Assembly: GCA_040954595.2 (NCBI GenBank)
Contig: JBECUI020000029.1
Span: 124,001-188,000 of the forward strand
From: Balanoglossus misakiensis
Taxonomy: Eukaryota; Animalia; Hemichordata
DNA: 64,000 nucleotides
Reading direction: 5' to 3'
Made by a program: the position numbers and the translations under genes. Of this stretch, positions 4,601 through 52,840 are shown piece after piece. Numbering within the stretch: position 1 is the stretch's first letter; each line of letters opens with the position of its first letter. The notes under the pieces were generated by a model. That model worked only from the letters and a program-made list of their open reading frames with translations, was not told the origin of the DNA and did no database searches.

Positions 4601-7600
4601 TTGGTGGCAGTTGAGCTGAGGAGAGCACCTTCCTTCCCGGCACGCCACCAAGTAAAGTTCCACGCCGCCCACCACAGATGCCAGCATTCATTCATGCGAG
4701 TGAGTGTAATTGCAAATTTGCCTATTCTAGAATCTTACGTGCCATTGGAGAGCTCCATTGACTGGTCATTCATACTGTTTTCATTCATTCATTGCGGCAT
4801 CAATATATTTTATCTATTCTAGCCAAAGAGCTTGGCACCTGTTGAAATGAACTCATCTGCTGTGGGCCAGTTTATTGGTGGCAGTTGAGCTGAGGAGAGC
4901 ACCTTCCTTCCCGGCACGCCACCAAGTAAAGTTCCACGCCGCCCACCACAGATGCCAGCATTCATTCATGCGAGTGAGTGTAATTGCAAATTTGCCTATT
5001 CTAGAATCTTACGTGCCATTGGAGAGCTCCATTGACTGGTCATTCATACTGTTTTCATTCATTCATTGCGGCATCAATATATTTTATCTATTCTAGCCGA
5101 AGAGCTTGGCACCTGTTGAAATGAACTCATCTGCTGTGGGCCAGTTTATTGGTGGCAGTTGAGCTGAGGAGAGCACCTTCCTTCCCGGCACGCCACCAAG
5201 TAAAGTTCCACGCCGCCCACCACAGATGCCAGCATTCATTCATGCGAGTGAGTGTAATTGCAAATTTGCCTATTCTAGATCTGTAATGGAAATGGAGAAA
5301 GTACCTTATATTTTCTGTAAAATAGACATTTAATTGGCAAGCCGTCCTGCATCAATTATTAATTGTGTACATGCACTAAAGCGCCCTCACTGCTGGGTGT
5401 GTTGTATGGTCTTTAACCCTGTTTCAAATTAGAGTACTTTCTGCAATTTCAAGACAGATCTTACGTGCCATTGGAGAGCTCCATTGACTGGTCATTCATA
5501 CTGTTTTCATTCATTCATTGCGGCATCAATATATTTTATCTATTCTAGCCAAAGAGCTTGGCACCTGTTGAAATGAACTCATCTGCTGTGGGCCAGTTTA
5601 TTGGTGGCAGTTGAGCTGAGGAGAGCACCTTCCTTCCCGGCACGCCACCAAGTAAAGTTCCACGCCGCCCACCACAGATGCCAGCATTCATTCATGCGAG
5701 TGAGTGTAATTGCAAATTTGCCTATTCTAGATTCTTACGTGCCATTGGAGAGCTCCATTGACTGGTCATTCATACTGTTTTCATTCATTCATTGCGGCAT
5801 CAATATATTTTATCTATTCTAGCCAAAGAGCTTGGCACCTGTTGAAATGAACTCATCTGCTGTGGGCCAGTTTATTGGTGGCAGTTGAGCTGAGGAGAGC
5901 ACCTTCCTTCCCGGCACGCCACCAAGTAAAGTTCCACGCCGCCCACCACAGATGCCAGCATTCATTCATGCGAGTGAGTGTAATTGCAAATTTGCCTATT
6001 CTAGAATCTTACGTGCCATTGGAGAGCTCCATTGACTGGTCATTCATACTGTTTTCATTCATTCATTGCGGCATCAATATATTTTATCTATTCTAGCCAA
6101 AGAGCTTGGCACCTGTTGAAATGAACTCATCTGCTGTGGGCCAGTTTATTGGTGGCAGTTGAGCTGAGGAGAGCACCTTCCTTCCCGGCACGCCACCAAG
6201 TAAAGTTCCACGCCGCCCACCACAGATGCCAGCATTCATTCATGCGAGTGAGTGTAATTGCAAATTTGCCTATTCTAGATCTGTAATGGAAATGGAGAAA
6301 GTACCTTATATTTTCTGTAAAATAGACATTTAATTGGCAAGCCGTCCTGCATCAATTATTAATTGTGTACATGCACTAAAGCGCCCTCACTGCTGGGTGT
6401 GTTGTATGGTCTTTAACCCTGTTTCAAATTAGAGTACTTTCTGCAATTTCAAGACAGATCTTACGTGCCATTGGAGAGCTCCATTGACTGGTCATTCATA
6501 CTGTTTTCATTCATTCATTGCGGCATCAATATATTTTATCTATTCTAGCCAAAGAGCTTGGCACCTGTTGAAATGAACTCATCTGCTGTGGGCCAGTTTA
6601 TTGGTGGCAGTTGAGCTGAGGAGAGCACCTTCCTTCCCGGCACGCCACCAAGTAAAGTTCCACGCCGCCCACCACAGATGCCAGCATTCATTCATGCGAG
6701 TGAGTGTAATTGCAAATTTGCCTATTCTAGATCTGTAATGGAAATGGAGAAAGTACCTTATATTTTCTGTAAAATAGACATTTAATTGGCAAGCCGTCCT
6801 GCATCAATTATTAATTGTGTACATGCACTAAAGCGCCCTCACTGCTGGGTGTGTTGTATGGTCTTTAACCCTGTTTCAAATTAGAGTACTTTCTGCAATT
6901 TCAAGACAGATCTTACGTGCCATTGGAGAGCTCCATTGACTGGTCATTCATACTGTTTTCATTCATTCATTGCGGCATCAATATATTTTATCTATTCTAG
7001 CCAAAGAGCTTGGCACCTGTTGAAATGAACTCATCTGCTGTGGGCCAGTTTATTGGTGGCAGTTGAGCTGAGGAGAGCACCTTCCTTCCCGGCACGCCAC
7101 CAAGTAAAGTTCCACGCCGCCCACCACAGATGCCAGCATTCATTCATGCGAGTGAGTGTAATTGCAAATTTGCCTATTCTAGATCTGTAATGGAAATGGA
7201 GAAAGTACCTTATATTTTCTGTAAAATAGACATTTAATTGGCAAGCCGTCCTGCATCAATTATTAATTGTGTACATGCACTAAAGCGCCCTCACTGCTGG
7301 GTGTGTTGTATGGTCTTTAACCCTGTTTCAAATTAGAGTACTTTCTGCAATTTCAAGACAGATCTTACGTGCCATTGGAGAGCTCCATTGACTGGTCATT
7401 CATACTGTTTTCATTCATTCATTGCGGCATCAATATATTTTATCTATTCTAGCCAAAGAGCTTGGCACCTGTTGAAATGAACTCATCTGCTGTGGGCCAG
7501 TTTATTGGTGGCAGTTGAGCTGAGGAGAGCACCTTCCTTCCCGGCACGCCACCAAGTAAAGTTCCACGCCGCCCACCACAGATGCCAGCATTCATTCATG

Positions 7601-10600
7601 CGAGTGAGTGTAATTGCAAATTTGCCTATTCTAGATCTGTAATGGAAATGGAGAAAGTACCTTATATTTTCTGTAAAATAGACATTTAATTGGCAAGCCG
7701 TCCTGCATCAATTATTAATTGTGTACATGCACTAAAGCGCCCTCACTGCTGGGTGTGTTGTATGGTCTTTAACCCTGTTTCAAATTAGAGTACTTTCTGC
7801 AATTTCAAGACAGATCTTACGTGCCATTGGAGAGCTCCATTGACTGGTCATTCATACTGTTTTCATTCATTCATTGCGGCATCAATATATTTTATCTATT
7901 CTAGCCAAAGAGCTTGGCACCTGTTGAAATGAACTCATCTGCTGTGGGCCAGTTTATTGGTGGCAGTTGAGCTGAGGAGAGCACCTTCCTTCCCGGCACG
8001 CCACCAAGTAAAGTTCCACGCCGCCCACCACAGATGCCAGCATTCATTCATGCGAGTGAGTGTAATTGCAAATTTGCCTATTCTAGATCTGTAATGGAAA
8101 TGGAGAAAGTACCTTATATTTTCTGTAAAATAGACATTTAATTGGCAAGCCGTCCTGCATCAATTATTAATTGTGTACATGCACTAAAGCGCCCTCACTG
8201 CTGGGTGTGTTGTATGGTCTTTAACCCTGTTTCAAATTAGAGTACTTTCTGCAATTTCAAGACAGATCTTACGTGCCATTGGAGAGCTCCATTGACTGGT
8301 CATTCATACTGTTTTCATTCATTCATTGCGGCATCAATATATTTTATCTATTCTAGCCAAAGAGCTTGGCACCTGTTGAAATGAACTCATCTGCTGTGGG
8401 CCAGTTTATTGGTGGCAGTTGAGCTGAGGAGAGCACCTTCCTTCCCGGCACGCCACCAAGTAAAGTTCCACGCCGCCCACCACAGATGCCAGCATTCATT
8501 CATGCGAGTGAGTGTAATTGCAAATTTGCCTATTCTAGATCTGTAATGGAAATGGAGAAAGTACCTTATATTTTCTGTAAAATAGACATTTAATTGGCAA
8601 GCCGTCCTGCATCAATTATTAATTGTGTACATGCACTAAAGCGCCCTCACTGCTGGGTGTGTTGTATGGTCTTTAACCCTGTTTCAAATTAGAGTACTTT
8701 CTGCAATTTCAAGACAGATCTTACGTGCCATTGGAGAGCTCCATTGACTGGTCATTCATACTGTTTTCATTCATTCATTGCGGCATCAATATATTTTATC
8801 TATTCTAGCCAAAGAGCTTGGCACCTGTTGAAATGAACTCATCTGCTGTGGGCCAGTTTATTGGTGGCAGTTGAGCTGAGGAGAGCACCTTCTTTCCCGG
8901 CACGCCACCAAGTAAAGTTCCACGCCGCCCACCACAGATGCCAGCATTCATTCATGCGAGTGAGTGTAATTGCAAATTTGCCTATTTACGTGCCATTGGA
9001 GAGCTCCATTGACTGGTCATTCATACTGTTTTCATTCATTCATTGCGGCATCAATATATTTTATCTATTCTAGCCAAAGAGCTTGGCACCTGTTGAAATG
9101 AACTCATCTGCTGTGGGCCAGTTTATTGGTGGCAGTTGAGCTGAGGAGAGCACCTTCCTTCCCGGCACGCCACCAAGTAAAGTTCCACGCCGCCCACCAC
9201 AGATGCCAGCATTCATTCATGCGAGTGAGTGTAATTGCAAATTTGCCTATTCTAGATCTGTAATGGAAATGGAGAAAGTACCTTATATTTTCTGTAAAAT
9301 AGACATTTAATTGGCAAGCCGTCCTGCATCAATTATTAATTGTGTACATGCACTAAAGCGCCCTCACTGCTGGGTGTGTTGTATGGTCTTTAACCCTGTT
9401 TCAAATTAGAGTACTTTCTGCAATTTCAAGACAGATCTTACGTGCCATTGGAGAGCTCCATTGACTGGTCATTCATACTGTTTTCATTCATTCATTGCGG
9501 CATCAATATATTTTATCTATTCTAGCCAAAGAGCTTGGCACCTGTTGAAATGAACTCATCTGCTGTGGGCCAGTTTATTGGTGGCAGTTGAGCTGAGGAG
9601 AGCACCTTCCTTCCCGGCACGCCACCAAGTAAAGTTCCACGCCGCCCACCACAGATGCCAGCATTCATTCATGCGAGTGAGTGTAATTGCAAATTTGCCT
9701 ATTCTAGAATTCTTACGTGCCATTGGAGAGCTCCATTGACTGGTCATTCATACTGTTTTCATTCATTCATTGCGGCATCAATATATTTTATCTATTCTAG
9801 CCAAAGAGCTTGGCACCTGTTGAAATGAACTCATCTGCTGTGGGCCAGTTTATTGGTGGCAGTTGAGCTGAGGAGAGCACCTTCCTTCCCGGCACGCCAC
9901 CAAGTAAAGTTCCACGCCGCCCACCACAGATGCCAGCATTCATTCATGCGAGTGAGTGTAATTGCAAATTTGCCTATTCTAGATCTGTAATGGAAATGGA
10001 GAAAGTACCTTATATTTTCTGTAAAATAGACATTTAATTGGCAAGCCGTCCTGCATCAATTATTAATTGTGTACATGCACTAAAGCGCCCTCACTGCTGG
10101 GTGTGTTGTATGGTCTTTAACCCTGTTTCAAATTAGAGTACTTTCTGCAATTTCAAGACAGATCTTACGTGCCATTGGAGAGCTCCATTGACTGGTCATT
10201 CATACTGTTTTCATTCATTCATTGCGGCATCAATATATTTTATCTATTCTAGCCAAAGAGCTTGGCACCTGTTGAAATGAACTCATCTGCTGTGGGCCAG
10301 TTTATTGGTGGCAGTTGAGCTGAGGAGAGCACCTTCTTTCCCGGCACGCCACCAAGTAAAGTTCCACGCCGCCCACCACAGATGCCAGCATTCATTCATG
10401 CGAGTGAGTGTAATTGCAAATTTGCCTATTCTAGAATCTTACGTGCCATTGGAGAGCTCCATTGACTGGTCATTCATACTGTTTTCATTCATTCATTGCG
10501 GCATCAATATATTTTATCTATTCTAGCCAAAGAGCTTGGCACCTGTTGAAATGAACTCATCTGCTGTGGGCCAGTTTATTGGTGGCAGTTGAGCTGAGGA

Positions 10601-13600
10601 GAGCACCTTCTTTCCCGGCACGCCACCAAGTAAAGTTCCACGCCGCCCACCACAGATGCCAGCATTCATTCATGCGAGTGAGTGTAATTGCAAATTTGCC
10701 TATTTACGTGCCATTGGAGAGCTCCATTGACTGGTCATTCATACTGTTTTCATTCATTCATTGCGGCATCAATATATTTTATCTATTCTAGCCAAAGAGC
10801 TTGGCACCTGTTGAAATGAACTCATCTGCTGTGGGCCAGTTTATTGGTGGCAGTTGAGCTGAGGAGAGCACCTTCCTTCCCGGCACGCCACCAAGTAAAG
10901 TTCCACGCCGCCCACCACAGATGCCAGCATTCATTCATGCGAGTGAGTGTAATTGCAAATTTGCCTATTCTAGATCTGTAATGGAAATGGAGAAAGTACC
11001 TTATATTTTCTGTAAAATAGACATTTAATTGGCAAGCCGTCCTGCATCAATTATTAATTGTGTACATGCACTAAAGCGCCCTCACTGCTGGGTGTGTTGT
11101 ATGGTCTTTAACCCTGTTTCAAATTAGAGTACTTTCTGCAATTTCAAGACAGATCTTACGTGCCATTGGAGAGCTCCATTGACTGGTCATTCATACTGTT
11201 TTCATTCATTCATTGCGGCATCAATATATTTTATCTATTCTAGCCAAAGAGCTTGGCACCTGTTGAAATGAACTCATCTGCTGTGGGCCAGTTTATTGGT
11301 GGCAGTTGAGCTGAGGAGAGCACCTTCTTTCCCGGCACGCCACCAAGTAAAGTTCCACGCCGCCCACCACAGATGCCAGCATTCATTCATGCGAGTGAGT
11401 GTAATTGCAAATTTGCCTATTCTAGAATCTTACGTGCCATTGGAGAGCTCCATTGACTGGTCATTCATACTGTTTTCATTCATTCATTGCGGCATCAATA
11501 TATTTTATCTATTCTAGCCAAAGAGCTTGGCACCTGTTGAAATGAACTCATCTGCTGTGGGCCAGTTTATTGGTGGCAGTTGAGCTGAGGAGAGCACCTT
11601 CTTTCCCGGCACGCCACCAAGTAAAGTTCCACGCCGCCCACCACAGATGCCAGCATTCATTCATGCGAGTGAGTGTAATTGCAAATTTGCCTATTCTAGA
11701 ATCTTACGTGCCATTGGAGAGCTCCATTGACTGGTCATTCATACTGTTTTCATTCATTCATTGCGGCATCAATATATTTTATCTATTCTAGCCAAAGAGC
11801 TTGGCACCTGTTGAAATGAACTCATCTGCTGTGGGCCAGTTTATTGGTGGCAGTTGAGCTGAGGAGAGCACCTTCCTTCCCGGCACGCCACCAAGTAAAG
11901 TTCCACGCCGCCCACCACAGATGCCAGCATTCATTCATGCGAGTGAGTGTAATTGCAAATTTGCCTATTCTAGAATCTTACGTGCCATTGGAGAGCTCCA
12001 TTGACTGGTCATTCATACTGTTTTCATTCATTCATTGCGGCATCAATATATTTTATCTATTCTAGCCAAAGAGCTTGGCACCTGTTGAAATGAACTCATC
12101 TGCTGTGGGCCAGTTTATTGGTGGCAGTTGAGCTGAGGAGAGCACCTTCCTTCCCGGCACGCCACCAAGTAAAGTTCCACGCCGCCCACCACAGATGCCA
12201 GCATTCATTCATGCGAGTGAGTGTAATTGCAAATTTGCCTATTCTAGAATCTTACGTGCCATTGGAGAGCTCCATTGACTGGTCATTCATACTGTTTTCA
12301 TTCATTCATTGCGGCATCAATATATTTTATCTATTCTAGCCGAAGAGCTTGGCACCTGTTGAAATGAACTCATCTGCTGTGGGCCAGTTTATTGGTGGCA
12401 GTTGAGCTGAGGAGAGCACCTTCCTTCCCGGCACGCCACCAAGTAAAGTTCCACGCCGCCCACCACAGATGCCAGCATTCATTCATGCGAGTGAGTGTAA
12501 TTGCAAATTTGCCTATTCTAGATCTGTAATGGAAATGGAGAAAGTACCTTATATTTTCTGTAAAATAGACATTTAATTGGCAAGCCGTCCTGCATCAATT
12601 ATTAATTGTGTACATGCACTAAAGCGCCCTCACTGCTGGGTGTGTTGTATGGTCTTTAACCCTGTTTCAAATTAGAGTACTTTCTGCAATTTCAAGACAG
12701 ATCTTACGTGCCATTGGAGAGCTCCATTGACTGGTCATTCATACTGTTTTCATTCATTCATTGCGGCATCAATATATTTTATCTATTCTAGCCAAAGAGC
12801 TTGGCACCTGTTGAAATGAACTCATCTGCTGTGGGCCAGTTTATTGGTGGCAGTTGAGCTGAGGAGAGCACCTTCCTTCCCGGCACGCCACCAAGTAAAG
12901 TTCCACGCCGCCCACCACAGATGCCAGCATTCATTCATGCGAGTGAGTGTAATTGCAAATTTGCCTATTCTAGATTCTTACGTGCCATTGGAGAGCTCCA
13001 TTGACTGGTCATTCATACTGTTTTCATTCATTCATTGCGGCATCAATATATTTTATCTATTCTAGCCAAAGAGCTTGGCACCTGTTGAAATGAACTCATC
13101 TGCTGTGGGCCAGTTTATTGGTGGCAGTTGAGCTGAGGAGAGCACCTTCCTTCCCGGCACGCCACCAAGTAAAGTTCCACGCCGCCCACCACAGATGCCA
13201 GCATTCATTCATGCGAGTGAGTGTAATTGCAAATTTGCCTATTCTAGAATCTTACGTGCCATTGGAGAGCTCCATTGACTGGTCATTCATACTGTTTTCA
13301 TTCATTCATTGCGGCATCAATATATTTTATCTATTCTAGCCAAAGAGCTTGGCACCTGTTGAAATGAACTCATCTGCTGTGGGCCAGTTTATTGGTGGCA
13401 GTTGAGCTGAGGAGAGCACCTTCCTTCCCGGCACGCCACCAAGTAAAGTTCCACGCCGCCCACCACAGATGCCAGCATTCATTCATGCGAGTGAGTGTAA
13501 TTGCAAATTTGCCTATTCTAGATCTGTAATGGAAATGGAGAAAGTACCTTATATTTTCTGTAAAATAGACATTTAATTGGCAAGCCGTCCTGCATCAATT

Positions 13601-16103
13601 ATTAATTGTGTACATGCACTAAAGCGCCCTCACTGCTGGGTGTGTTGTATGGTCTTTAACCCTGTTTCAAATTAGAGTACTTTCTGCAATTTCAAGACAG
13701 ATCTTACGTGCCATTGGAGAGCTCCATTGACTGGTCATTCATACTGTTTTCATTCATTCATTGCGGCATCAATATATTTTATCTATTCTAGCCAAAGAGC
13801 TTGGCACCTGTTGAAATGAACTCATCTGCTGTGGGCCAGTTTATTGGTGGCAGTTGAGCTGAGGAGAGCACCTTCCTTCCCGGCACGCCACCAAGTAAAG
13901 TTCCACGCCGCCCACCACAGATGCCAGCATTCATTCATGCGAGTGAGTGTAATTGCAAATTTGCCTATTCTAGATCTGTAATGGAAATGGAGAAAGTACC
14001 TTATATTTTCTGTAAAATAGACATTTAATTGGCAAGCCGTCCTGCATCAATTATTAATTGTGTACATGCACTAAAGCGCCCTCACTGCTGGGTGTGTTGT
14101 ATGGTCTTTAACCCTGTTTCAAATTAGAGTACTTTCTGCAATTTCAAGACAGATCTTACGTGCCATTGGAGAGCTCCATTGACTGGTCATTCATACTGTT
14201 TTCATTCATTCATTGCGGCATCAATATATTTTATCTATTCTAGCCAAAGAGCTTGGCACCTGTTGAAATGAACTCATCTGCTGTGGGCCAGTTTATTGGT
14301 GGCAGTTGAGCTGAGGAGAGCACCTTCCTTCCCGGCACGCCACCAAGTAAAGTTCCACGCCGCCCACCACAGATGCCAGCATTCATTCATGCGAGTGAGT
14401 GTAATTGCAAATTTGCCTATTCTAGATCTGTAATGGAAATGGAGAAAGTACCTTATATTTTCTGTAAAATAGACATTTAATTGGCAAGCCGTCCTGCATC
14501 AATTATTAATTGTGTACATGCACTAAAGCGCCCTCACTGCTGGGTGTGTTGTATGGTCTTTAACCCTGTTTCAAATTAGAGTACTTTCTGCAATTTCAAG
14601 ACAGATCTTACGTGCCATTGGAGAGCTCCATTGACTGGTCATTCATACTGTTTTCATTCATTCATTGCGGCATCAATATATTTTATCTATTCTAGCCAAA
14701 GAGCTTGGCACCTGTTGAAATGAACTCATCTGCTGTGGGCCAGTTTATTGGTGGCAGTTGAGCTGAGGAGAGCACCTTCCTTCCCGGCACGCCACCAAGT
14801 AAAGTTCCACGCCGCCCACCACAGATGCCAGCATTCATTCATGCGAGTGAGTGTAATTGCAAATTTGCCTATTCTAGATCTGTAATGGAAATGGAGAAAG
14901 TACCTTATATTTTCTGTAAAATAGACATTTAATTGGCAAGCCGTCCTGCATCAATTATTAATTGTGTACATGCACTAAAGCGCCCTCACTGCTGGGTGTG
15001 TTGTATGGTCTTTAACCCTGTTTCAAATTAGAGTACTTTCTGCAATTTCAAGACAGATCTTACGTGCCATTGGAGAGCTCCATTGACTGGTCATTCATAC
15101 TGTTTTCATTCATTCATTGCGGCATCAATATATTTTATCTATTCTAGCCAAAGAGCTTGGCACCTGTTGAAATGAACTCATCTGCTGTGGGCCAGTTTAT
15201 TGGTGGCAGTTGAGCTGAGGAGAGCACCTTCCTTCCCGGCACGCCACCAAGTAAAGTTCCACGCCGCCCACCACAGATGCCAGCATTCATTCATGCGAGT
15301 GAGTGTAATTGCAAATTTGCCTATTCTAGATCTGTAATGGAAATGGAGAAAGTACCTTATATTTTCTGTAAAATAGACATTTAATTGGCAAGCCGTCCTG
15401 CATCAATTATTAATTGTGTACATGCACTAAAGCGCCCTCACTGCTGGGTGTGTTGTATGGTCTTTAACCCTGTTTCAAATTAGAGTACTTTCTGCAATTT
15501 CAAGACAGATCTTACGTGCCATTGGAGAGCTCCATTGACTGGTCATTCATACTGTTTTCATTCATTCATTGCGGCATCAATATATTTTATCTATTCTAGC
15601 CAAAGAGCTTGGCACCTGTTGAAATGAACTCATCTGCTGTGGGCCAGTTTATTGGTGGCAGTTGAGCTGAGGAGAGCACCTTCCTTCCCGGCACGCCACC
15701 AAGTAAAGTTCCACGCCGCCCACCACAGATGCCAGCATTCATTCATGCGAGTGAGTGTAATTGCAAATTTGCCTATTCTAGATCTGTAATGGAAATGGAG
15801 AAAGTACCTTATATTTTCTGTAAAATAGACATTTAATTGGCAAGCCGTCCTGCATCAATTATTAATTGTGTACATGCACTAAAGCGCCCTCACTGCTGGG
15901 TGTGTTGTATGGTCTTTAACCCTGTTTCAAATTAGAGTACTTTCTGCAATTTCAAGACAGATCTTACGTGCCATTGGAGAGCTCCATTGACTGGTCATTC
16001 ATACTGTTTTCATTCATTCATTGCGGCATCAATATATTTTATCTATTCTAGCCAAAGAGCTTGGCACCTGTTGAAATGAACTCATCTGCTGTGGGCCAGT
16101 TTA
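1618..16103. repeat. Two copies of a 7243-bp higher-order repeat (20 monomers)
   Basis: Variant monomers recur at 1618, 8861, 16104. Order: 265,452,275,452,274,265,452,274,274,274,274,452,274,274, then 6x452, summing to 7243. The same period holds at 33730 to 40973. Confidence 0.97.
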
Positions 16104-16870
16104 TTGGTGGCAGTTGAGCTGAGGAGAGCACCTTCTTTCCCGGCACGCCACCAAGTAAAGTTCCACGCCGCCCACCACAGATGCCAGCATTCATTCATGC
16201 GAGTGAGTGTAATTGCAAATTTGCCTATTTACGTGCCATTGGAGAGCTCCATTGACTGGTCATTCATACTGTTTTCATTCATTCATTGCGGCATCAATAT
16301 ATTTTATCTATTCTAGCCAAAGAGCTTGGCACCTGTTGAAATGAACTCATCTGCTGTGGGCCAGTTTATTGGTGGCAGTTGAGCTGAGGAGAGCACCTTC
16401 CTTCCCGGCACGCCACCAAGTAAAGTTCCACGCCGCCCACCACAGATGCCAGCATTCATTCATGCGAGTGAGTGTAATTGCAAATTTGCCTATTCTAGAT
16501 CTGTAATGGAAATGGAGAAAGTACCTTATATTTTCTGTAAAATAGACATTTAATTGGCAAGCCGTCCTGCATCAATTATTAATTGTGTACATGCACTAAA
16601 GCGCCCTCACTGCTGGGTGTGTTGTATGGTCTTTAACCCTGTTTCAAATTAGAGTACTTTCTGCAATTTCAAGACAGATCTTACGTGCCATTGGAGAGCT
16701 CCATTGACTGGTCATTCATACTGTTTTCATTCATTCATTGCGGCATCAATATATTTTATCTATTCTAGCCAAAGAGCTTGGCACCTGTTGAAATGAACTC
16801 ATCTGCTGTGGGCCAGTTTATTGGTGGCAGTTGAGCTGAGGAGAGCACCTTCCTTCCCGGCACGCCACCA

Positions 16871-18677
16871 AGTAAAGTTCCACGTGCATTCCTGGCCCTG
16901 GTTTTATTTATGTTTACAGACAATATTGCATTTTTGTACAAGTATTTTAATCAACTATAAATTTTGAATGTGTCATTTACCTGAACCGGTCATGTTGACC
17001 AGAATGATACATTTCTGCCTTCACTCACCCTATAAATATGTGATTGAGACATAGGTCATTTGCATAAGCTAACATACCAGAAAGTAAGCATATCTGTTGT
17101 TTTCCCTGTGTCACTGCCATCAAAGTAAAAATTAGACGTTGTGTAGAGCAAACTCCAATTTTTTGTTCTCAATAAACATGGATGAATTACATAGAATGTG
17201 TTTGTTGTTTACAGTCTTTAAATGACACATTAGATTATGCACTTTACAAAACGTTTCTGAGAAACAAGTGACTAACTAGTTTCTTTCCACTGTGGCCAAC
17301 GTGGTTCACTGTTTGTGTCAGAATCTCTCTGTTTTGCAAGGATTTTGAAATCATAGTGGTGACATGCATAGTGAAAATCAGCTACTTTCAAATGTCCGTC
17401 ATGTTCATGCTGTAATTGAATTTTCAAAGCTGGGCTGGCGTGTTTTTTCTTATTTACATAAGTATCACACTTTATACATGTATCTTCATGGGGTTTTTTG
17501 AGTCCCGTATTTAGGTCCTCTCTCACAATTTTACGAAATATCGTATAACTGACAGTTGTTCTTCCCAGAAGAGATTGGTTGGTTATGAACTCTCGGTGTA
17601 ACTGCGATATACTGTGGGCCGGCGCCAGGTACGGTTTAAATCGAGGATTCCTGCAGTAGTGAGATTCTACAATTCTGTGCCTGCGTACGTGTTCAGTGAT
17701 ATCAGTCAGCAAATTTGGATTGAGTTTCCGACGATGCCCTTTGTGTCGGCCCCTTGCATCTGGCATCAGACCAGTAAAGTTCCATGTGCATTCCTGGCCC
17801 TGGTTTTATTTATGTTTACAGACAATATTGCATTTTTGTACAAGTATTTTAATCAACTATAAATTTTGAATGTGTCATTTACCTGAACCGGTCATGTTGA
17901 CCAGAATGATACATTTCTGCCTTCACTCACCCTATAAATATGTGATTGAGACATAGGTCATTTGCATAAGCTAACATACCAGAAAGTAAGCATATCTGAT
18001 GTTTTCCCTGTGTCACTGCCATCAAAGTAAAAATTAGACGTTGTGTAGAGCAAACTCCAATTTTTTGTTCTCAATAAACATGGATGAATTACATAGAATG
18101 TGTTTGTTGTTTACAGTCTTTAAATGACACATTAGATTATGCACTTTACAAAACGTTTCTGAGAAACAAGTGACTAACTAGTTTCTTTCCACTGTGGCCA
18201 ACGTGGTTCACTGTTTGTGTCAGAATCTCTCTGTTTTGCAAGGATTTTGAAATCATAGTGGTGACATGCATAGTGAAAATCAGCTACTTTCAAATGTCCG
18301 TCATGTTCATGCTGTAATTGAATTTTCAAAGCTGGGCTGGCGTGTTTTTTCTTATTTACATAAGTATCACACTTTATACATGTATCTTCATGGGGTTTTC
18401 TGAGTCCCGTATTTAGGTCCTCTCTCACAATTTTACGAAATATCGTATAACTGACAGTTGTTCTTCCCAGAAGAGATTGGTTGGTTATGAACTCTCGGTG
18501 TAACTGCGATATACTGTGGTCCGGTGCCAGGTACGGTTTAAATCGAGGATTCCTGCAGTAGTGAGATTCTACAATTCTGTGCCTGCGTACGTGTTCAGTG
18601 ATATCAGTCAGCAAATTTGGATTGAGTTTCCGACGATGCCCTTTGTGTCGGCCCCTTGCATCTGGCATCAGACCAGT
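16871..18677. repeat. 902-bp tandem duplication inside the cassette
   Basis: 16871-17775 matches 17773-18677 with a few substitutions. Junction has agt microhomology (gaccagt|aaagttcc vs gaccagt|tgaacag). Confidence 0.95.
17272..17775 (-). pseudogene. 5'-truncated duplicate of the transposase N-half gene (164-aa ORF from an internal Met)
   Basis: Matches the last 164 aa of the 18174-19136 ORF except two residues (D>A, R>K); created by the 902-bp duplication. Confidence 0.75.
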
Positions 18678-19130
18678 TGAACAGTGCATCATTTTGCTTA
18701 GAACGGTTCTAGTCCGCCTCTCACTAATGCCAAATAATTTCAGGAATGCATTTTTGCAGACAGTAACCGTTTCACCGCCTTCATTCACCAGGTGATAACG
18801 AACCGATTTCTTGTGTGACTTCATCTGCATATCCATCAGTTTGTAGAGCATCAAGTTCTGTTCATTATACACGCGACCATCAAAATATTTTCTCGTGGTG
18901 CCTAAAACATGCGTACTCCCAAGCTTCCGCATACAATTCCCTTGAACGCAGGCGCATTCCAAGGAAAGACTGTCAATATCTGGAAAAGGGCGATTTTTCC
19001 TTGGTTTTTGTCTCGGACACGTCTTTTTAGAATTCCTACGTGGCTTGTTGGCTCGAGCTGACAGTTCGGTTCTGCGTTGCTGCCACACAGGAATGGGTTC
19101 CCACGCATAAGCAACTCCCCGGCAGGCCAT
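18174..19130 (-). CDS. Sola1-like transposase, N-terminal half (putative DNA-binding/Zn region)
   Basis: Open ORF with first ATG at 19130. Motifs VCKNAFLKLFGIS, DARGRH, ESHYCR..YL, VSYTIFRKIV...KPHEDTCxxCD...HxxH resemble the N-terminal half of Sola1-type transposases. No catalytic motifs. Confidence 0.8.
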   Translation of the reverse strand: MACRGVAYAWEPIPVWQQRRTELSARANKPRRNSKKTCPRQKPRKNRPFPDIDSLSLECACVQGNCMRKLGSTHVLGTTRKYFDGRVYNEQNLMLYKLMDMQMKSHKKSVRYHLVNEGGETVTVCKNAFLKLFGISERRTRTVLSKMMHCSTGLMPDARGRHKGHRRKLNPNLLTDITEHVRRHRIVESHYCRNPRFKPYLAPDHSISQLHREFITNQSLLGRTTVSYTIFRKIVREDLNTGLRKPHEDTCIKCDTYVNKKKHASPALKIQLQHEHDGHLKVADFHYACHHYDFKILAKQRDSDTNSEPRWPQWKETS

Positions 19131-19177
19131 GGTCACAGCTGAAGTATTTGTTCAAGTACTGACTGACTAAACGCGGC

Positions 19178-20311
19178 ATGGAACAAACGAACGAACGACT
19201 TCACGTTCGGAAAAAAAATCGTTGCGAGCTGTTGGGTGCATGCCTCTATAGTTGTCGGCAACCGTTCTTTTTTATTGCTAAACAATGCTGTCAGAGCATG
19301 GAAGGTGTGGTGGAAAACGAACAGAGGTTTTGTACGACCAACGATTGGATGGTGCTACATATGGACTTCCACAAGTCATTGCCGGTTCCTAAACTCAGCT
19401 CTGAAGACTTTTACTTTAAATCGAAATTGCAAATGAAGCTCCTTGGAATTTACAACGGGACAACGGAAAAGATGCATTGTTATGTATGGACAGAGCTCGA
19501 TAGCAGAAAGTCTCCCGATGAAGTTATTACCTGTCTAAATCACTTTTTTTATAACTCGGGTGTGACCAGCAGACATGCAGTTATTTACAGCGACAACTGC
19601 CGTGCCGAATTCAAGTGTGGGAAGTTAATGTTTTACTATGACTATCTGTTACGAAAGGGCGTGTTTCGACGAATTGACTATAAAACTCTTGTGGCTGGAC
19701 ACACGTACTCCACCTGTGACCGAGTTTTTGCGTCCATTGAAAGGCATGCAAGTCGTTTCCAGAGTATAGAGACACCTCACGATTGGACATCTGTGATTCG
19801 AGGATCTTCTCTGAATGGGAACATTGGAGTTACGGAGATGACTCACAGAGACTTTTTCAATTATTCTGATTTCCTGAAAAATGAGTACGTTGTGCGTTAT
19901 GCAGATACAAACAATGTAACTTTTTACTACCAAGCCATGCACTATTTTAATTTTGGAGAAGGAGAAAGGCTTGATACCGACGGCAACCTCAGAACATTTA
20001 GTCATGCAGATAAAGTTTGGGTGAGAACATCTCTAGATCCAAGCGAGACCCCGATTGTAGTCGACTTTAGAAAGAAGAAGCAGAACCGGCGTTTACAAGA
20101 TTGTACGCTGAACAAACTTTATCAGGAACGTCGACCACTGGCGAGCAAAGTTTGGCGGGATCTTCAGAGTTTAGCCAAAAATTACCTGTCTCCGGAGGCA
20201 ATAGAATTTTATAGGAATCTACCGCTTCAGGAGAGTAGTGGCACCTCTGCAGACCCGTACGCCTTTCATGATGATGACGACGACGATGATGATGATATGG
20301 GCGGTGGTTGA
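19178..20311 (+). CDS. Sola1-like transposase, catalytic DDD half
   Basis: 377-aa ORF (alternative start ATG 19298, agcATGG). Motifs DFHKSLPVP..FYFKSKL, CYVWTE..EVITCL, SDNC, GHTYSTCDRVFASIE; acidic tail. AATAAA overlaps the stop (20311-20316). Confidence 0.88.
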   Translation: MEQTNERLHVRKKNRCELLGACLYSCRQPFFFIAKQCCQSMEGVVENEQRFCTTNDWMVLHMDFHKSLPVPKLSSEDFYFKSKLQMKLLGIYNGTTEKMHCYVWTELDSRKSPDEVITCLNHFFYNSGVTSRHAVIYSDNCRAEFKCGKLMFYYDYLLRKGVFRRIDYKTLVAGHTYSTCDRVFASIERHASRFQSIETPHDWTSVIRGSSLNGNIGVTEMTHRDFFNYSDFLKNEYVVRYADTNNVTFYYQAMHYFNFGEGERLDTDGNLRTFSHADKVWVRTSLDPSETPIVVDFRKKKQNRRLQDCTLNKLYQERRPLASKVWRDLQSLAKNYLSPEAIEFYRNLPLQESSGTSADPYAFHDDDDDDDDDMGGG

Positions 20312-20472
20312 ATAAACTGTCCTTTTCATGACGACAGTGATTTTGGATATTTGATGTGCGTGCACAGTTTATATGTAATATTTTCACACGAACGAGTTTT
20401 GACTGAATTTGATTAAAGAATGTACTCGATAATTAACAAATGTGCTGAATCGTGGTTATTATGTTGTTAATT

Positions 20473-20512
20473 TTTGTTTGTTTGTTTGTTTGTTTGTTTG
20501 TTTGTTTGTTTG
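20473..20512. repeat. (TTTG)10 microsatellite
   Basis: Read directly; same tract at 52503-52542. Confidence 0.95.
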
Positions 20513-20645
20513 TAAACAATTTCCGTTCATTCAACTGGCTACAAAGTTGGATTTTTGTACTGGGAAGCGATAAACTCGCACATCAAAACCGGGGAGACTC
20601 GATCATTTTTCCCTGCAGGTAGCCTGAAAAGCACCCGGGCAGAGA

Positions 20646-20718
20646 TTACGTCATATATGGTCCACTTTAATACGAAATTATGCAAATGTGACATTTCACG
20701 GAAACGGCGTATATAAAA
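20646..20718 (+). promoter_or_regulatory. Putative Pol II promoter of the wH-SET gene
   Basis: CRE-like TTACGTCA (20646), octamer ATGCAAAT (20680), TATAAAA (20712), about 100 bp upstream of ATG 20811. Confidence 0.55.
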
Positions 20719-20810
20719 GCGACCCTGGGCTATTGTTCGGAATGCGTCATCGACGAGAGAGTGACTGATAATTCTTCTACCTCGAGTCAACCATTCTGTA
20801 TATACTGAAC

Positions 20811-22148
20811 ATGGCTAGCTGGCGCAGGAAGAGACAAGGCAATGTGCGGTCTGTAATCAACGAACGGCACCGCTCAGTTCAGTGTCCCTTTCTTCAAAAG
20901 TGGATCGGTGAGCAATTGGTATTTTCAGGTCGTTCAGAGGATGAAGTCCAGTCCAGTACTGTATTTGAGAGCTACAAATGTTGGGTTGAAAACTATTCGT
21001 CGGCGGACAATCAAGTAATGATTATGGTTACTAAAGCTCGATTTTTCAAGGTGAGAATGATCGCATTTTTCTTTCCCCCCCCCCCCCTCCCTCCCTCCCT
21101 CCCCCAAGGGACTCGTTTTCTGTCTCTTTTAAACCTGTAACTTAACGAAAAGGAAGTTTTTCACATATCTCTTCGTTGACACTATAGCAATTTGGAGCGC
21201 GGATGCTTCAAGAGAAGAGCGTTACCAAATCAAAGTCGGCCGGGGTTAATATTTATAGAGGTGTTCGTCTGAAAGCTGGTTCGCGAAGAATCTCAACGGG
21301 GAAACCTGAGCACAGTGTACTTCAGACCAGGGCAAGGGCATTTCTTGATGACGCCAGCGTGACCGTTCCGATCGAGGTAAGAATGGTGTTTTGTTTGGAC
21401 TAGGACAATAGAACGTTGCAATGAGTGTGTCAATGGGTGTCCAAGTGCAAACGTGGTCTGCTTCTGTCCACAAATGCCATTAATTTTTGGCAGGATTTAT
21501 AAAATTGTCAATGAAGAATACAAAAATGAAAAACAACAGTTAATAGCAAACTGGTAGGATTGCAAGGGCTTGTAAAACGGTACACACTGTACCAGGAAGT
21601 TTGCAACACTAATGAAGAATGTATATGATATATTTAGGTGAGAACTGTTCGCGATCGCCGGGACGCAGGACGGTGCGCGTTTTCGACGAGGGATATTCAA
21701 GCCTGGGACGTCGTCTGCGAATACCGGGGCACGGTTATTAGCGTTGAAGAAGCTAGTCGGCGTGATGAGCTTTACAGGGCAGAGGGGAAACGACCACGCA
21801 TGTTCCATCTCTACATTGGAAAGAGACACGTTGTGTGAGTGTATCACTTAGTCGAATATATGGTCATATATTGCAAAGCATCTGTCGAAATAGAAAACGT
21901 AATATTGTCTATATTTTCCTCATTAACGCAGCATTGACGGATACGATGTCCCAGCCGGTGAAGAAAATTTAGCAGGCCTAATAAATCACAGTCAGCAGAA
22001 CGCCAACTTGGTACCGGTTCGGATCGGAGAGCGCCTGGTTTTCTTTGCAACCAGGAATCTTTGTCAGGGAGTAGAGCTTTTGTATGATTACGGTGACGGG
22101 GGTGAAGAGGATTTCTTCAGTGGTTCTCAAACTTTTCCTGAAAATTAA
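20811..22148 (+). CDS. Spliced gene (~280 aa): winged-helix-like domain + SETD8/PR-Set7-like SET lysine methyltransferase
   Basis: Exons 20811-21050, 21188-21376, 21638-21834, 21932-22148 with GT-AG introns joining in frame (phases 0,0,2). SET motifs GRCAFSTRDI..VCEYRG, IDG..NLAGLINHS..N, ELLYDYGD. N-terminal WIGEQL..SSTVFESYKCW..FFKQF..YRGVRLK resembles RFX/D5-C winged helices. Confidence 0.85.
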
Positions 22149-23051
22149 GGCATTAACACATCAACGCTTCGGGGTGTCGTAACGGCGGCGCGGCGGGGGG
22201 GGGGGGGACGTGAAAATGTTTGTATCAGGAACAAAATTCCCGTGCAAATCACCTTGATCCGGGTGGGTGGACTATTCGCGACAAATGTTGAAATCATACA
22301 AAGCATTTTACTTAATTAACCCATTTTTTTCATTTATTTGTTTACAGTTTACAACGTCATAGAGAAGTTGAACTAGAGACTGGATCAGCGTGGGTGACAC
22401 CATAGTACACCAATGTTTTCTTCAGTTTGATTCAATTGTAATTTAAAACTGAGATTGCCTAACGCTTTCCCAGATTTTTTTAACCACTGAGAAACTGTGG
22501 GTTTTTTTCTGGGTTTTGGTGCGAGGTGATCTCAGTCAGTGGTGTTAATTTAATTAATCATTTTCTTTTCCTATTTACGTCGACTGAAATGTATTTTGAT
22601 AGGTGATAGTCATACCATAAAAAAAATCTTACGGCGCGACTGCCAAAATGTACATTTATTTGTCCGTTCCAAGTTATTTTGTGTATGTGTGATGGGTGCC
22701 GGTGACTGTGCAGGGTTGATTTCCCTAGAGCGACTGTTATATTCGTTTTCCAACGATGATGAATTTACATGTTATTTGCTTGGCATTTTGACGCAGAGAC
22801 ACTTCTGAAAACACAAACCTATTAATTATGCCACGGGTGTAAATTGATCACATTAAAAGAGGCTTTAGACGTTTGCCGCGAGCTCCTGGTGGGCAGAATC
22901 TTGTCAGCCCAAATTTGACTATAAGTACATAGCCAATGATGTGACGCTCTCCCACATCCTTCGCCGCGCCTTTTCGCTGATTTACAGCATCTTGCGTAAA
23001 CACTGTCATTTGATCTTGCTTGGCAGAAGTCAACTTGCTCTATACTACATT

Positions 23052-23417
23052 ATGGCGGCCAAGCTCAACTGCATATCAGATAATGCCAAGGAGCGTTTGA
23101 GAGGCATCCTCGCCAGAAGGAGTCGCGTTTCCGGTGACTGTGTGCTCTGGACGGGTGCAGCTTGTCGAAACGGCTATGGCTCTATTACGTTCAGAGATGA
23201 GAACACTCTAACCGCCTATGTCCATCACATTGCACTCCTAATTAACGGAGTGCAATTGGTGGGCAGGCGGTTAGAGTGTTCTCATCTTTGCAACGAAAAG
23301 CTATGCATCCGCCCAGAGCACATTGTCCAGGAAACGCGACTCCTAAACATTTCACGAAAGACGTGCTTTAAATCCCCAAAAGGGGAGTGTCACCACGATC
23401 CCAGGTGCCTAAGGTGA
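23052..23417 (+). CDS. His-Cys box / His-Me finger endonuclease (I-PpoI-like), ~121 aa
   Basis: CVLWTG..NGYG..YVHH..ECSHLCNEKLCIRPEHIVQE...NISRKTC..CHHDPRC matches the zinc-binding His-Cys box pattern. ATG 23052; CCAAT upstream near 22933. A gtgagt overlaps the stop, so a small terminal intron is possible. Confidence 0.85.
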   Translation: MAAKLNCISDNAKERLRGILARRSRVSGDCVLWTGAACRNGYGSITFRDENTLTAYVHHIALLINGVQLVGRRLECSHLCNEKLCIRPEHIVQETRLLNISRKTCFKSPKGECHHDPRCLR

Positions 23418-24395
23418 GTAATCCTCTTCTCATTTGATATGTATTGTGTGACCCTGCAGTTGAAACGCTTTCATCAATAATTTGCGGCGCGTGGGTAATC
23501 TCGGTGTTATTGACAATGCAGCCGGCCCAAACATTTTTAAATTAACACTGTTTCTGACTGTATTAACGAAATGTCCAATTTGCAAGTAGCCTATAGACAA
23601 CCCTTTTGAATGAGTTTTGTCTCGTTGAGATTTTATACATAAGGAACAATCTAGATTTATTTTAGAAGACACTGTTCTTTTAAAACAGCTAGCATAATAC
23701 AGCTAAATTTCGGAATTTCCGGACAATTTTCGGAATTCCTTTTAAATTTGAGAAATTTTTCATCAGATATAAGTGTTACTATTTATTGGACATGTTTTTA
23801 TCATTGTTTACTTTTTAAGGTCATTCTCACCCCCCCCCCCCCCAAAAAAAGCCGCTTTAGGCTTCATGTTCAGTAAAAAATCTGGAAAGTTCAGCTGAAT
23901 TTTACACTGATCACACATTTTTGGGAAGGTCTGGCGCAAAATAAAGGATGACAAATGTAAATCTAATGTCACATTTGTAAACCTCTAAGTATTGTACACT
24001 CATTCTATTAAGTATATGCAAATAGTACGGATAATTTTTTCGGAATGTGGAATTCCGAAATTAGTTCGGAACGTGTTAGCAGTGAAGAGATCACCACTGA
24101 GGGTTGGAAGGCCTTGCCAGAAATTAACGCGTAAAGTACGCCCTCACAGGCCATGTAAACAAGGTCAAATAAGGCCGTCTGGCAAACGAATGATTAATTC
24201 AACGCGCCATTTGAGCCGAGCTGAGTTGGTCTGAGTTGCGTATCACACAGACTTAGGCTGAATGTCAGTGGAGTAACCAGTCCGTTTTAGATTTACCAAT
24301 GATGTGAATTTAATTTCTTCACCCAGAAAAACAGAACACAACTTGTCTGCAACATGATGCTGGAGGTGACACATGACAGAGAAGTGGATCCGCGT

Positions 24396-24730
24396 TGTCA
24401 ACACAGATGCCAGCATTCAAAAGGGGAGTGCCACCTGCTAAAATCAACTCATCTGCTGTTGGCCCATTTTACCTGTGGCAACTGTTCAGAGGAGACAACG
24501 TTTATTCCGTGCAAGCCAACACGCAATGTTGGGGTCTACCTGTCAACACAGATGCAAGCATTCATGTGAGTGAGTATCAGGACTGACCTTGTATTTGCTG
24601 AATAATTCATAATGCCTATTTTAGAATTCTTAGAGGCATTTGGAGTTCATTGCCTGGTCAACCAAACTACACCCCTTAACAGCTGAAACAAAATGCGTAT
24701 TGTGTTCATTCATTCATTGCATCAATATAT
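24396..24730. repeat. Diverged relic of the satellite monomer inside the cassette
   Basis: Colinear matches: acagatgccagcattca, cacctgctaaaatcaactcatctgctgttggcc, gtgagtgagt, tgcctattttagaattctta, ttcattcattcattgcatcaatatat. Confidence 0.85.
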
Positions 24731-25037
24731 ATAGGCAACATGAGTATCAAGTAGCACTATTTGTTTACGATTGTATTCATGAAAACTTCCCACTAACAAT
24801 TCCACAGTTAATATTGAACACATTTATCCAACAAGGTCAAAAGAAAAAGGGAATCTTCTGGTTCCAAAATACGCCACAAATGTGGGTCAACATACAGTGA
24901 AATATTATGGTGCTCAAATATGCAACATATCAAATCTGTCTCATCAAAGTCATGCTTTAAAAAAGAATTGAAAAGGTATTATTTATCCATTTGACTGCTG
25001 TATTTTCAGAAGGAAAACAAACTGAATTTGGTTTTTC

Positions 25038-28000
25038 AAGTACCTTATATTTTCTGTAAAATAGACATTTAATTGGCAAGCCGTCCTGCATCAATTATTA
25101 ATTGTGTACATGCACTAAAGCGCCCTCACTGCTGGGTGTGTTGTATGGTCTTTAACCCTGTTTCAAATTAGAGTACTTTCTGCAATTTCAAGACAGATCT
25201 TACGTGCCATTGGAGAGCTCCATTGACTGGTCATTCATACTGTTTTCATTCATTCATTGCGGCATCAATATATTTTATCTATTCTAGCCAAAGAGCTTGG
25301 CACCTGTTGAAATGAACTCATCTGCTGTGGGCCAGTTTATTGGTGGCAGTTGAGCTGAGGAGAGCACCTTCCTTCCCGGCACGCCACCAAGTAAAGTTCC
25401 ACGCCGCCCACCACAGATGCCAGCATTCATTCATGCGAGTGAGTGTAATTGCAAATTTGCCTATTCTAGATCTGTAATGGAAATGGAGAAAGTACCTTAT
25501 ATTTTCTGTAAAATAGACATTTAATTGGCAAGCCGTCCTGCATCAATTATTAATTGTGTACATGCACTAAAGCGCCCTCACTGCTGGGTGTGTTGTATGG
25601 TCTTTAACCCTGTTTCAAATTAGAGTACTTTCTGCAATTTCAAGACAGATCTTACGTGCCATTGGAGAGCTCCATTGACTGGTCATTCATACTGTTTTCA
25701 TTCATTCATTGCGGCATCAATATATTTTATCTATTCTAGCCAAAGAGCTTGGCACCTGTTGAAATGAACTCATCTGCTGTGGGCCAGTTTATTGGTGGCA
25801 GTTGAGCTGAGGAGAGCACCTTCCTTCCCGGCACGCCACCAAGTAAAGTTCCACGCCGCCCACCACAGATGCCAGCATTCATTCATGCGAGTGAGTGTAA
25901 TTGCAAATTTGCCTATTCTAGATCTGTAATGGAAATGGAGAAAGTACCTTATATTTTCTGTAAAATAGACATTTAATTGGCAAGCCGTCCTGCATCAATT
26001 ATTAATTGTGTACATGCACTAAAGCGCCCTCACTGCTGGGTGTGTTGTATGGTCTTTAACCCTGTTTCAAATTAGAGTACTTTCTGCAATTTCAAGACAG
26101 ATCTTACGTGCCATTGGAGAGCTCCATTGACTGGTCATTCATACTGTTTTCATTCATTCATTGCGGCATCAATATATTTTATCTATTCTAGCCAAAGAGC
26201 TTGGCACCTGTTGAAATGAACTCATCTGCTGTGGGCCAGTTTATTGGTGGCAGTTGAGCTGAGGAGAGCACCTTCCTTCCCGGCACGCCACCAAGTAAAG
26301 TTCCACGCCGCCCACCACAGATGCCAGCATTCATTCATGCGAGTGAGTGTAATTGCAAATTTGCCTATTCTAGATCTGTAATGGAAATGGAGAAAGTACC
26401 TTATATTTTCTGTAAAATAGACATTTAATTGGCAAGCCGTCCTGCATCAATTATTAATTGTGTACATGCACTAAAGCGCCCTCACTGCTGGGTGTGTTGT
26501 ATGGTCTTTAACCCTGTTTCAAATTAGAGTACTTTCTGCAATTTCAAGACAGATCTTACGTGCCATTGGAGAGCTCCATTGACTGGTCATTCATACTGTT
26601 TTCATTCATTCATTGCGGCATCAATATATTTTATCTATTCTAGCCAAAGAGCTTGGCACCTGTTGAAATGAACTCATCTGCTGTGGGCCAGTTTATTGGT
26701 GGCAGTTGAGCTGAGGAGAGCACCTTCCTTCCCGGCACGCCACCAAGTAAAGTTCCACGCCGCCCACCACAGATGCCAGCATTCATTCATGCGAGTGAGT
26801 GTAATTGCAAATTTGCCTATTCTAGATCTGTAATGGAAATGGAGAAAGTACCTTATATTTTCTGTAAAATAGACATTTAATTGGCAAGCCGTCCTGCATC
26901 AATTATTAATTGTGTACATGCACTAAAGCGCCCTCACTGCTGGGTGTGTTGTATGGTCTTTAACCCTGTTTCAAATTAGAGTACTTTCTGCAATTTCAAG
27001 ACAGATCTTACGTGCCATTGGAGAGCTCCATTGACTGGTCATTCATACTGTTTTCATTCATTCATTGCGGCATCAATATATTTTATCTATTCTAGCCAAA
27101 GAGCTTGGCACCTGTTGAAATGAACTCATCTGCTGTGGGCCAGTTTATTGGTGGCAGTTGAGCTGAGGAGAGCACCTTCTTTCCCGGCACGCCACCAAGT
27201 AAAGTTCCACGCCGCCCACCACAGATGCCAGCATTCATTCATGCGAGTGAGTGTAATTGCAAATTTGCCTATTTACGTGCCATTGGAGAGCTCCATTGAC
27301 TGGTCATTCATACTGTTTTCATTCATTCATTGCGGCATCAATATATTTTATCTATTCTAGCCAAAGAGCTTGGCACCTGTTGAAATGAACTCATCTGCTG
27401 TGGGCCAGTTTATTGGTGGCAGTTGAGCTGAGGAGAGCACCTTCCTTCCCGGCACGCCACCAAGTAAAGTTCCACGCCGCCCACCACAGATGCCAGCATT
27501 CATTCATGCGAGTGAGTGTAATTGCAAATTTGCCTATTCTAGATCTGTAATGGAAATGGAGAAAGTACCTTATATTTTCTGTAAAATAGACATTTAATTG
27601 GCAAGCCGTCCTGCATCAATTATTAATTGTGTACATGCACTAAAGCGCCCTCACTGCTGGGTGTGTTGTATGGTCTTTAACCCTGTTTCAAATTAGAGTA
27701 CTTTCTGCAATTTCAAGACAGATCTTACGTGCCATTGGAGAGCTCCATTGACTGGTCATTCATACTGTTTTCATTCATTCATTGCGGCATCAATATATTT
27801 TATCTATTCTAGCCAAAGAGCTTGGCACCTGTTGAAATGAACTCATCTGCTGTGGGCCAGTTTATTGGTGGCAGTTGAGCTGAGGAGAGCACCTTCCTTC
27901 CCGGCACGCCACCAAGTAAAGTTCCACGCCGCCCACCACAGATGCCAGCATTCATTCATGCGAGTGAGTGTAATTGCAAATTTGCCTATTCTAGAATTCT

Positions 28001-51160: not shown

Positions 51161-51207
51161 GGTCACAGCTGAAGTATTTGTTCAAGTACTGACTGACTAA
51201 ACGCGGC

Positions 51208-52341: not shown

Positions 52342-52840
52342 ATAAACTGTCCTTTTCATGACGACAGTGATTTTGGATATTTGATGTGCGTGCACAGTTT
52401 ATATGTAATATTTTCACACGAACGAGTTTTGACTGAATTTGATTAAAGAATGTACTCGATAATTAACAAATGTGCTGAATCGTGGTTATTATGTTGTTAA
52501 TTTTTGTTTGTTTGTTTGTTTGTTTGTTTGTTTGTTTGTTTGTAAACAATTTCCGTTCATTCAACTGGCTACAAAGTTGGATTTTTGTACTGGGAAGCGA
52601 TAAACTCGCACATCAAAACCGGGGAGACTCGATCATTTTTCCCTGCAGGTAGCCTGAAAAGCACCCGGGCAGAGATTACGTCATATATGGTCCACTTTAA
52701 TACGAAATTATGCAAATGTGACATTTCACGGAAACGGCGTATATAAAAGCGACCCTGGGCTATTGTTCGGAATGCGTCATCGACGAGAGAGTGACTGATA
52801 ATTCTTCTACCTCGAGTCAACCATTCTGTATATACTGAAC

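Follow-up and report, generated by a model that had tools for sequence, protein, structure and literature searches.

SET genes have been described in DNA transposons of oomycetes: in Phytophthora they were acquired by the HarbingerS and MuDR families (PMC12730594), and a Phytophthora proto-Helentron has a SET ORF that was compared with Clr4, of the H3K9 type (PMC4067079). The accessory genes of some transposons have been connected with protection of the element. In plants, VANC of the VANDAL transposons acts in sequence-specific anti-silencing and has tandem repeats as its targets (PMC5735166), and in fungi the accessory gene of TET/JBP-bearing transposons has been proposed to guard the element against silencing (PMC12730594). 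Sequence-specific anti-silencing by transposons has thus been shown in plants; for fungi (TET/JBP) and oomycetes (SET) it is a proposal. In marine invertebrates, KolobokP combines a DDD/E transposase with an I-PpoI-like His-Cys endonuclease, forms tandem multimers and has direct repeats of about 450 bp in the arrangement LTDR-INT-LTDR, according to the accessible part of its description (PMC9587614).

The locus analysed here likewise pairs a transposase with a His-Cys endonuclease in one gene block. Unlike in KolobokP, the transposase is split and of the DUF7869 type, a SET gene is present, and the 452-bp unit around the block is a long satellite that is cut at monomer position 366 on the left, with no whole terminal repeats. 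The SET gene, which encodes a predicted winged helix ahead of a SET domain resembling KMT5A (SETD8, PR-Set7), is the subject of this study. By the window we mean the whole stretch of DNA analysed, 64,000 nucleotides, and all positions refer to it unless another locus is named.

Results

Joining of 20811-21050, 21188-21376, 21638-21834 and 21932-22148 on the forward strand at GT-AG boundaries gave an open frame of 280 aa with LINHS, ELLYDYGD and GRCAF, a single ATG, a single stop and introns of 137, 261 and 97 bp. Exon 1 encodes residues 1-80, the helical part of the winged helix, and exon 2 residues 81-143 with the wing hairpin and the pre-SET helix. The first SET half, with GRCAF and EYRG, is encoded by exon 3 (Pfam SET E 1.7e-4) and the second, followed by a short acidic tail, by exon 4 (E 1.6e-7). 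An identical set of the four exons lies at 52841-54181, and the frames are intact in both copies. Within the ranges tested, 10 GT-AG combinations gave an open frame with these motifs, and the 280-aa form was the best of them when scored against the homolog from Ptychodera flava (954; others 884-942). This homolog (XP_070545977.1, 278 aa) is a RefSeq gene model, a prediction with no cDNA, and it is 64% identical (179/280) over all 280 residues, crossing all three junctions. Its four tblastn matches begin or stop at the exon limits, with that of exon 2 extending 12 bases into intron 2. Identity to the P. flava protein is 58% in exon 1, 56% in exon 2 and 74% in exon 3, and the SET part is better conserved than the winged helix (72% vs 58%).

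The four-exon gene and the fusion of a winged helix to a SET domain, both put forward in the original prediction, are thus upheld by the GT-AG frame and by a full-length, collinear homolog. Because the P. flava protein, too, is known from a predicted gene, the fusion could be an artefact of gene prediction, with winged-helix and SET exons that are in fact separate or unexpressed. However, similarity runs collinearly through all junctions of this 64% identical homolog, the exon remnants at a metagenome locus (L001, described below) stand in the same order, and the single ATG and stop and the intact frames in both copies would be difficult to reconcile with such an artefact, which we regard as extremely improbable. 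The gene is real in sequence, with its four-exon structure confirmed and its splicing predicted, and it is very probably expressed as a winged-helix/SET fusion.

Relatives of the N-terminal part are few. Exon 1 as a query against 1.84 billion representatives gave five proteins, and the four homologs from Logan contigs matched in exon 1 only, with the similarity ending at the intron 1 donor. A profile search recovered one full-length homolog and 11 SET-only matches among 4192 candidates. A word-based search with exon 1 found no homolog among 20 candidates, and blanks from this search weigh little, since a protein 58% identical in exon 1 exists and was missed. Hemichordates are the nearest named relatives of two genes.

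The structure model was built on the P. flava homolog with an 11-row alignment and is confident for residues 21-110 only (pLDDT 69-91 per block), with strands at residues 93-108, in exon 2. When this part was compared with 48,161 chains, RFX1 (1dp7) was matched with Z 9.0 (rmsd 2.4, 72 aligned), followed by RFX5 at 8.7, the origin-binding domain of phage P4 at 7.3 and the PrimPol of ASFV at 7.2. Foldseek against the PDB gave the same leading matches at E-values of 0.08 or worse, that is, short of significance, and among Atlas and viral models the closest were the C-terminal winged helices of D5/P4 primases. The Pfam scan of the homologs found SET only for P0010 and nothing for P0011-P0014, with no match to RFX or Pox_D5. 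The N-terminal domain is therefore predicted, as first suggested, to be a winged helix of the RFX/D5/P4 type. It shares this predicted fold with the RFX DNA-binding domain and the D5/P4 winged helix at 9-17% identity (17% to RFX1 in the structural alignment), but the helicase, the primase and the RFX dimerisation region are all missing from the fusion protein. The domain begins at most 20 residues from the first Met, and DNA binding is likely, as it is basic (pI 10.6) and its fold relatives bind DNA.

In the SET part, the kinship to SETD8 that had been proposed was recovered by several comparisons. KMT5A chains were the top 14 of the 34 matches among solved structures in the PDB (34-41 bits, with KMT2 and EZH2 at 30 bits or less), and the KMT5A profile match spans residues 122-266. 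In the Atlas the best structural match was a cluster of H4K20 methyltransferases (TM 0.73), and the feature neighbours were giant-virus SET clusters with no assigned substrate; in our own model the SET part has no confident fold (pLDDT mostly under 50). Eight aligned KMT5A rows have 27 invariant columns, of which the fusion protein keeps 17. With SETD8 residues numbered by counting back from the KMT5A C-terminus as 352, the equivalents of Y245, Y334, Y336, N298 and H299 are kept as Y172 (in exon 3) and Y260, Y262, N227 and H228 (in exon 4). Y260 thus places a Tyr at the Phe/Tyr switch, as expected from the original prediction, and Y245 and Y334 are named in PDB titles as studied SETD8 sites. 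The pre-SET helix and an insert helix with R-R-D/E-x-x-Y also match the KMT5A pattern. Judged from these alignments, the domain is SETD8/KMT5A-like, and its resemblance to KMT5A exceeds that to other SET classes. By eye, residues 109-116 resemble the RRSSRK segment of KMT5A; the KMT5A profile match begins only at 122.

KMT5A is thus the nearest solved SET domain (41 bits), with the active-site Tyr and NH in common, and the differences from it are also clear. The SET part is 29-34% identical to eight KMT5A-type domains, the seven animal ones of which are 45-90% identical among themselves. The C-terminal PWL motif, present in 11/11 relatives, is absent from both fusion proteins; the (H)PWL motif of KMT5A closes the SAM site. 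A PIP degron ahead of the SET domain, searched by its pattern, was matched in 8/8 KMT5A tested and in 0/2 fusion proteins, and the fusion protein has a folded winged helix where the N-terminus of KMT5A is unstructured. An assignment as the host SETD8 orthologue was rejected because of the low identity and the missing motifs.

The original prediction had cautioned that motif I reads GRCAF. The departure is real, but it carries less weight than was given to it: the P. flava protein has GRCVF, the broken copy at L001 GLCAF and four fish KMT5A GRAVF, and we regard it as minor. A weightier change is found at the Arg of RLINHS (R295, which corresponds to R265 and to fly R634), which is Gly in both the window protein (G224, exon 4) and the P. 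flava protein and Arg in 11/11 KMT5A-type relatives. In the broken copy at L001 a frameshift falls at this position. Separately, the stretch 1566-1815 of L001, in the broken copy, has Trp at the Phe/Tyr switch position. According to one study, replacing this Arg with Gly blocks human KMT5A in vitro and is the substitution normally used to obtain a dead enzyme; the corresponding fly mutant retains a non-catalytic function, with binding of the H4 peptide kept and binding of SAH lost in a model, although it could be a mere hypomorph (10.1101/2022.01.30.478405). The Gly is thus a real concern for activity, larger than GRCAF.

A SET domain that is tethered by the winged helix and binds the H4 tail with no methylation, and so shields the element from the host SETD8-SUV4-20 route to H4K20me3, would fit the Gly in both intact homologs, the loss of the PWL tail and the non-catalytic function of the fly mutant. 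On the other hand, the equivalents of Y245, Y334, Y336 and NH are kept, the SET domain is the best conserved part of the protein, and the fly mutant is perhaps only hypomorphic; we consider such a transposon-borne pseudo-methyltransferase rather unlikely. Several active SET enzymes (vSET, SET7/9, SMYD) are also devoid of the RLINHS Arg, and since they are active we would slightly favour a catalytically active fusion protein. If it is active, the balance tips a little towards H4K20 as the substrate. On the substrate side, RMFHL in the fusion protein takes the place of the KMT5A segment CYMYYF, and together with the giant-virus neighbours of the SET part and the D5-type models closest to the winged helix this could indicate an enzyme acting on a non-histone target, such as the transposase or endonuclease of the element, or on another histone lysine, with a winged helix that has no sequence preference. 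The H4K20 methyltransferase cluster as best structural match and the KMT5A-like pre-SET and insert helices argue against this, and we find it quite improbable.

What the original prediction overlooked is the context: the SET fusion gene is one of four genes in a transposon-like block. The non-satellite block covers 8153 bp at 16885-25037, and a second copy, which includes the second SET gene, lies at 48915-57072. Since the copies are 99.9% identical and share the same satellite junctions, they were probably made together with their flanks and did not arise from two insertions. Neither terminal inverted repeats nor a target duplication were found in the block or at its ends; its left end is rearranged, and the true ends of the element may be lost or lie beyond the window. 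At 16871-17772 on the reverse strand, the N-terminal transposase gene has its 3' part, together with the region downstream of it, repeated in tandem as a 902-bp duplicate. This duplicate recurs in copy 2, and its junction has AGTAAAGTTCCA in common with the satellite monomer.

The transposase of the block is encoded in two halves that stand head to head, 168 bp apart. The N-terminal half (18174-19130, reverse strand, 318 aa from the first ATG) was recognised by its homology to the N-terminal region of P0004, a DDE transposase made as one chain (31% identity over 137 aa, E 4e-12), and the catalytic half (19298-20311, forward strand) by DUF7869 (PF25273, E 1.4e-14). The catalytic half has Asp codons at 19364, 19592 and 19718, with three Asp conserved in the alignment, and its model (pLDDT 78.6) has an integrase/transposase fold (Z 8.8), with integrases and Mos1 at the top of the list; it thus shares the RNase H-fold and the three acidic residues of DDE cut-and-paste transposons. 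Its motifs make it a putative member of the Sola superfamily. Stand-alone halves of 306-313 aa make up three of the four homologs of the catalytic half, one of them from Saccoglossus, and at a metagenome locus (L004) two transposase halves again lie head to head. Going by these sequences, the split is a trait of the family. In a pairing prediction the two halves scored 0.68, against 0.00 for the best of 3 controls, with at least 48% of contacts shared between runs and a partner pLDDT of at least 61. The mark used is reached by 51/78 solved and 2/108 mismatched pairs (39/65 and 2/126 in eukaryotes), and halves of split genes tend to pass this test. The two halves are predicted to reassemble, with the last helix of the N-terminal half packing against the first strand of the catalytic half.

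After the SET gene follows a His-Cys box endonuclease gene of the I-PpoI type (23052-23417, forward strand; PF05551 E 2e-13), with a direct match to I-PpoI at E 0.004. The endonuclease gene is intact, and its coding DNA at 23118-23344, and likewise in copy 2, folds into a single hairpin roughly 225 nt long, with -154.5 kcal/mol and z -18.2; none of 200 shuffles was as good, and it was the strongest among 28 windows sampled across the block. Small RNAs made from such a hairpin might keep a toxic nuclease in check. Past the endonuclease gene, non-coding DNA contains a 23-nt inverted repeat (23717-23739 and 24049-24071, 87% complementary, 309 nt apart). Pfam gave nothing significant for six short ORFs between or after the genes, nor for 24303-24566, and Rfam had no match within 16000-26000. 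Viral contigs were searched for the transposase half, the endonuclease and the fusion protein, and prokaryote genomes for the transposase half, in each case with no relative found, and no helicase or primase family appeared in the scanned ORFs of the block. The endonuclease was the sole block gene with a match in PHROGs. A viral origin of the block was set aside, given these blanks in viral contigs and a block that showed no gene for a capsid, a polymerase or a helicase.

Four metagenome loci were found with the transposase, of which L001 is the longest and the other three measure 1.3-2.1 kb. L001 carries the catalytic transposase half and, on the opposite strand, a broken fusion gene with remnants of exons 1, 3 and 4 in order (exon 1 at 10.0 bits vs 4.2 for the best shuffle). 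The intron 1 donor and intron 3 match the window gene in position and phase; a candidate for exon 2 had no significance and was not found by the exon 2 profile. The SET gene was seen at this one of the four loci, and the endonuclease had no match in any of the four. Gene order differs between the window and L001, but the partnership of SET gene and transposase is kept in these two distant hosts. This linkage rests on two loci, the window and L001, and it makes it very likely that the fusion gene is cargo of the transposon.

The satellite itself, in 452-bp monomers with deletion variants of 269-274 bp and a higher-order unit of 7243 bp, runs through the window on the forward strand (1-64000) and occupies 47,255 of its 64,000 bases. 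The higher-order unit was seen at 1743-16229 and 27273-48362, and the deletion variants restart at monomer position 160-163. At 48363-48786, a near-perfect palindrome of 424 bp (396/424 positions) sits at a TA in one monomer and resembles a foldback MITE. The left junction of the block cuts the monomer at the same position in both copies. Inside the block, 24421-24580 (forward strand) is a diverged relative of monomer positions 253-412 (blastn 71% over 151 bp; nhmmer E 3e-17). Given this homology, the element may be the source of the satellite, or an old satellite relic may survive in the block. Three monomer-related stretches were seen at the right end of the block, at 24396-24730, of which only 24421-24580 is significant.

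It had been proposed that the protein is targeted to the satellite around it, where its mark would serve centromere function or drive, and H4K20me1 has a role at CENP-A nucleosomes. The block is present twice inside a homogeneous satellite, and with part of the monomer homologous to the right end of the block a binding site could have been amplified in the satellite, as the targets of VANC form tandem repeats. Yet in L001 the gene and the transposase stand side by side and 5.2 kb contain neither the satellite nor any long tandem repeat, and the window has 0 matches to the RFX X-box pattern vs 5.1 expected by chance, although the domain need not share the specificity of RFX. Satellite targeting therefore found no support, nor did the centromere role, and a sequence-targeted enzyme of this kind is very improbable.

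Discussion

The explanation we consider best, to which we give an even chance, is that the fusion gene plays an accessory part in a DNA transposon family whose DDE transposase is split, and that the protein it encodes binds the DNA of the element and monomethylates a nearby lysine, likely H4K20, with permissive chromatin as the outcome. The winged helix would tether the KMT5A-derived SET domain to the element's own DNA, where the SET domain would monomethylate a lysine close by, most likely K20 of histone H4, and the mark would keep the chromatin of the element permissive. Such an anti-silencing purpose, which the original prediction had also raised, is plausible by analogy with VANC and the TET-bearing transposons. 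As the winged helix occupies the place of the KMT5A PIP degron, the fusion protein would also escape the degron-based cell-cycle limit on host SETD8. The block would have entered the satellite once and would then have multiplied with it by unequal exchange.

A bolder version would be an undescribed family of animal DNA transposons. Its transposase would be made as two chains from head-to-head genes and accompanied by a homing-type endonuclease, and a sequence-targeted winged-helix/SET protein in one chain, free of the degron, would either write H4K20 methylation on the element or prevent it there. The site bound by this protein would have been amplified from the right end into the satellite, and the element would then control the chromatin of a satellite that it had created. 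We regard this whole combination as decidedly unlikely. If the explanation preferred here, a DNA-tethered enzyme acting against silencing, is true, anti-silencing by an animal transposon becomes directly testable with one protein of 280 aa. The natural Gly at a position used to inactivate SETD8 offers a test of whether the loss of the Arg can be compensated or a dead SET domain is retained to act as a decoy. The transposase, with its conserved division into head-to-head genes, is unusual in itself and merits a separate study.

A full-text literature search returned no fusion of a winged helix with a KMT5A-like domain in an animal transposon, nor this split transposase, and no mention of DUF7869 in the papers examined for it; Repbase may already have a name for the family. 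Searches by term in the accessible text of PMC5034662, PMC4455052, 10.1101/2021.09.26.461848, PMC10629977 and PMC11175523 found nothing on the transposon family. With VANC and the TET/JBP transposons the likeness is one of functional analogy only, and here the targeting and modifying modules would be in one chain. SETMAR/Metnase, a gene domesticated in primates, has a mariner transposase and a SET domain of another class, and it is presumably comparable in that a SET domain is brought to DNA by a DNA-binding domain of the mobile-element type; in contrast to it, the fusion gene remains within its element. The SET genes of oomycete transposons are likewise separate SET ORFs in DNA transposons, with other transposases, and the accessible parts of their descriptions mention no fused DNA-binding domain (PMC12730594, PMC4067079). 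A SET gene in a transposon is thus in itself already known, and what is new in this locus is that a winged helix is fused to the SET domain, that Gly naturally replaces the Arg and that the transposase is split.
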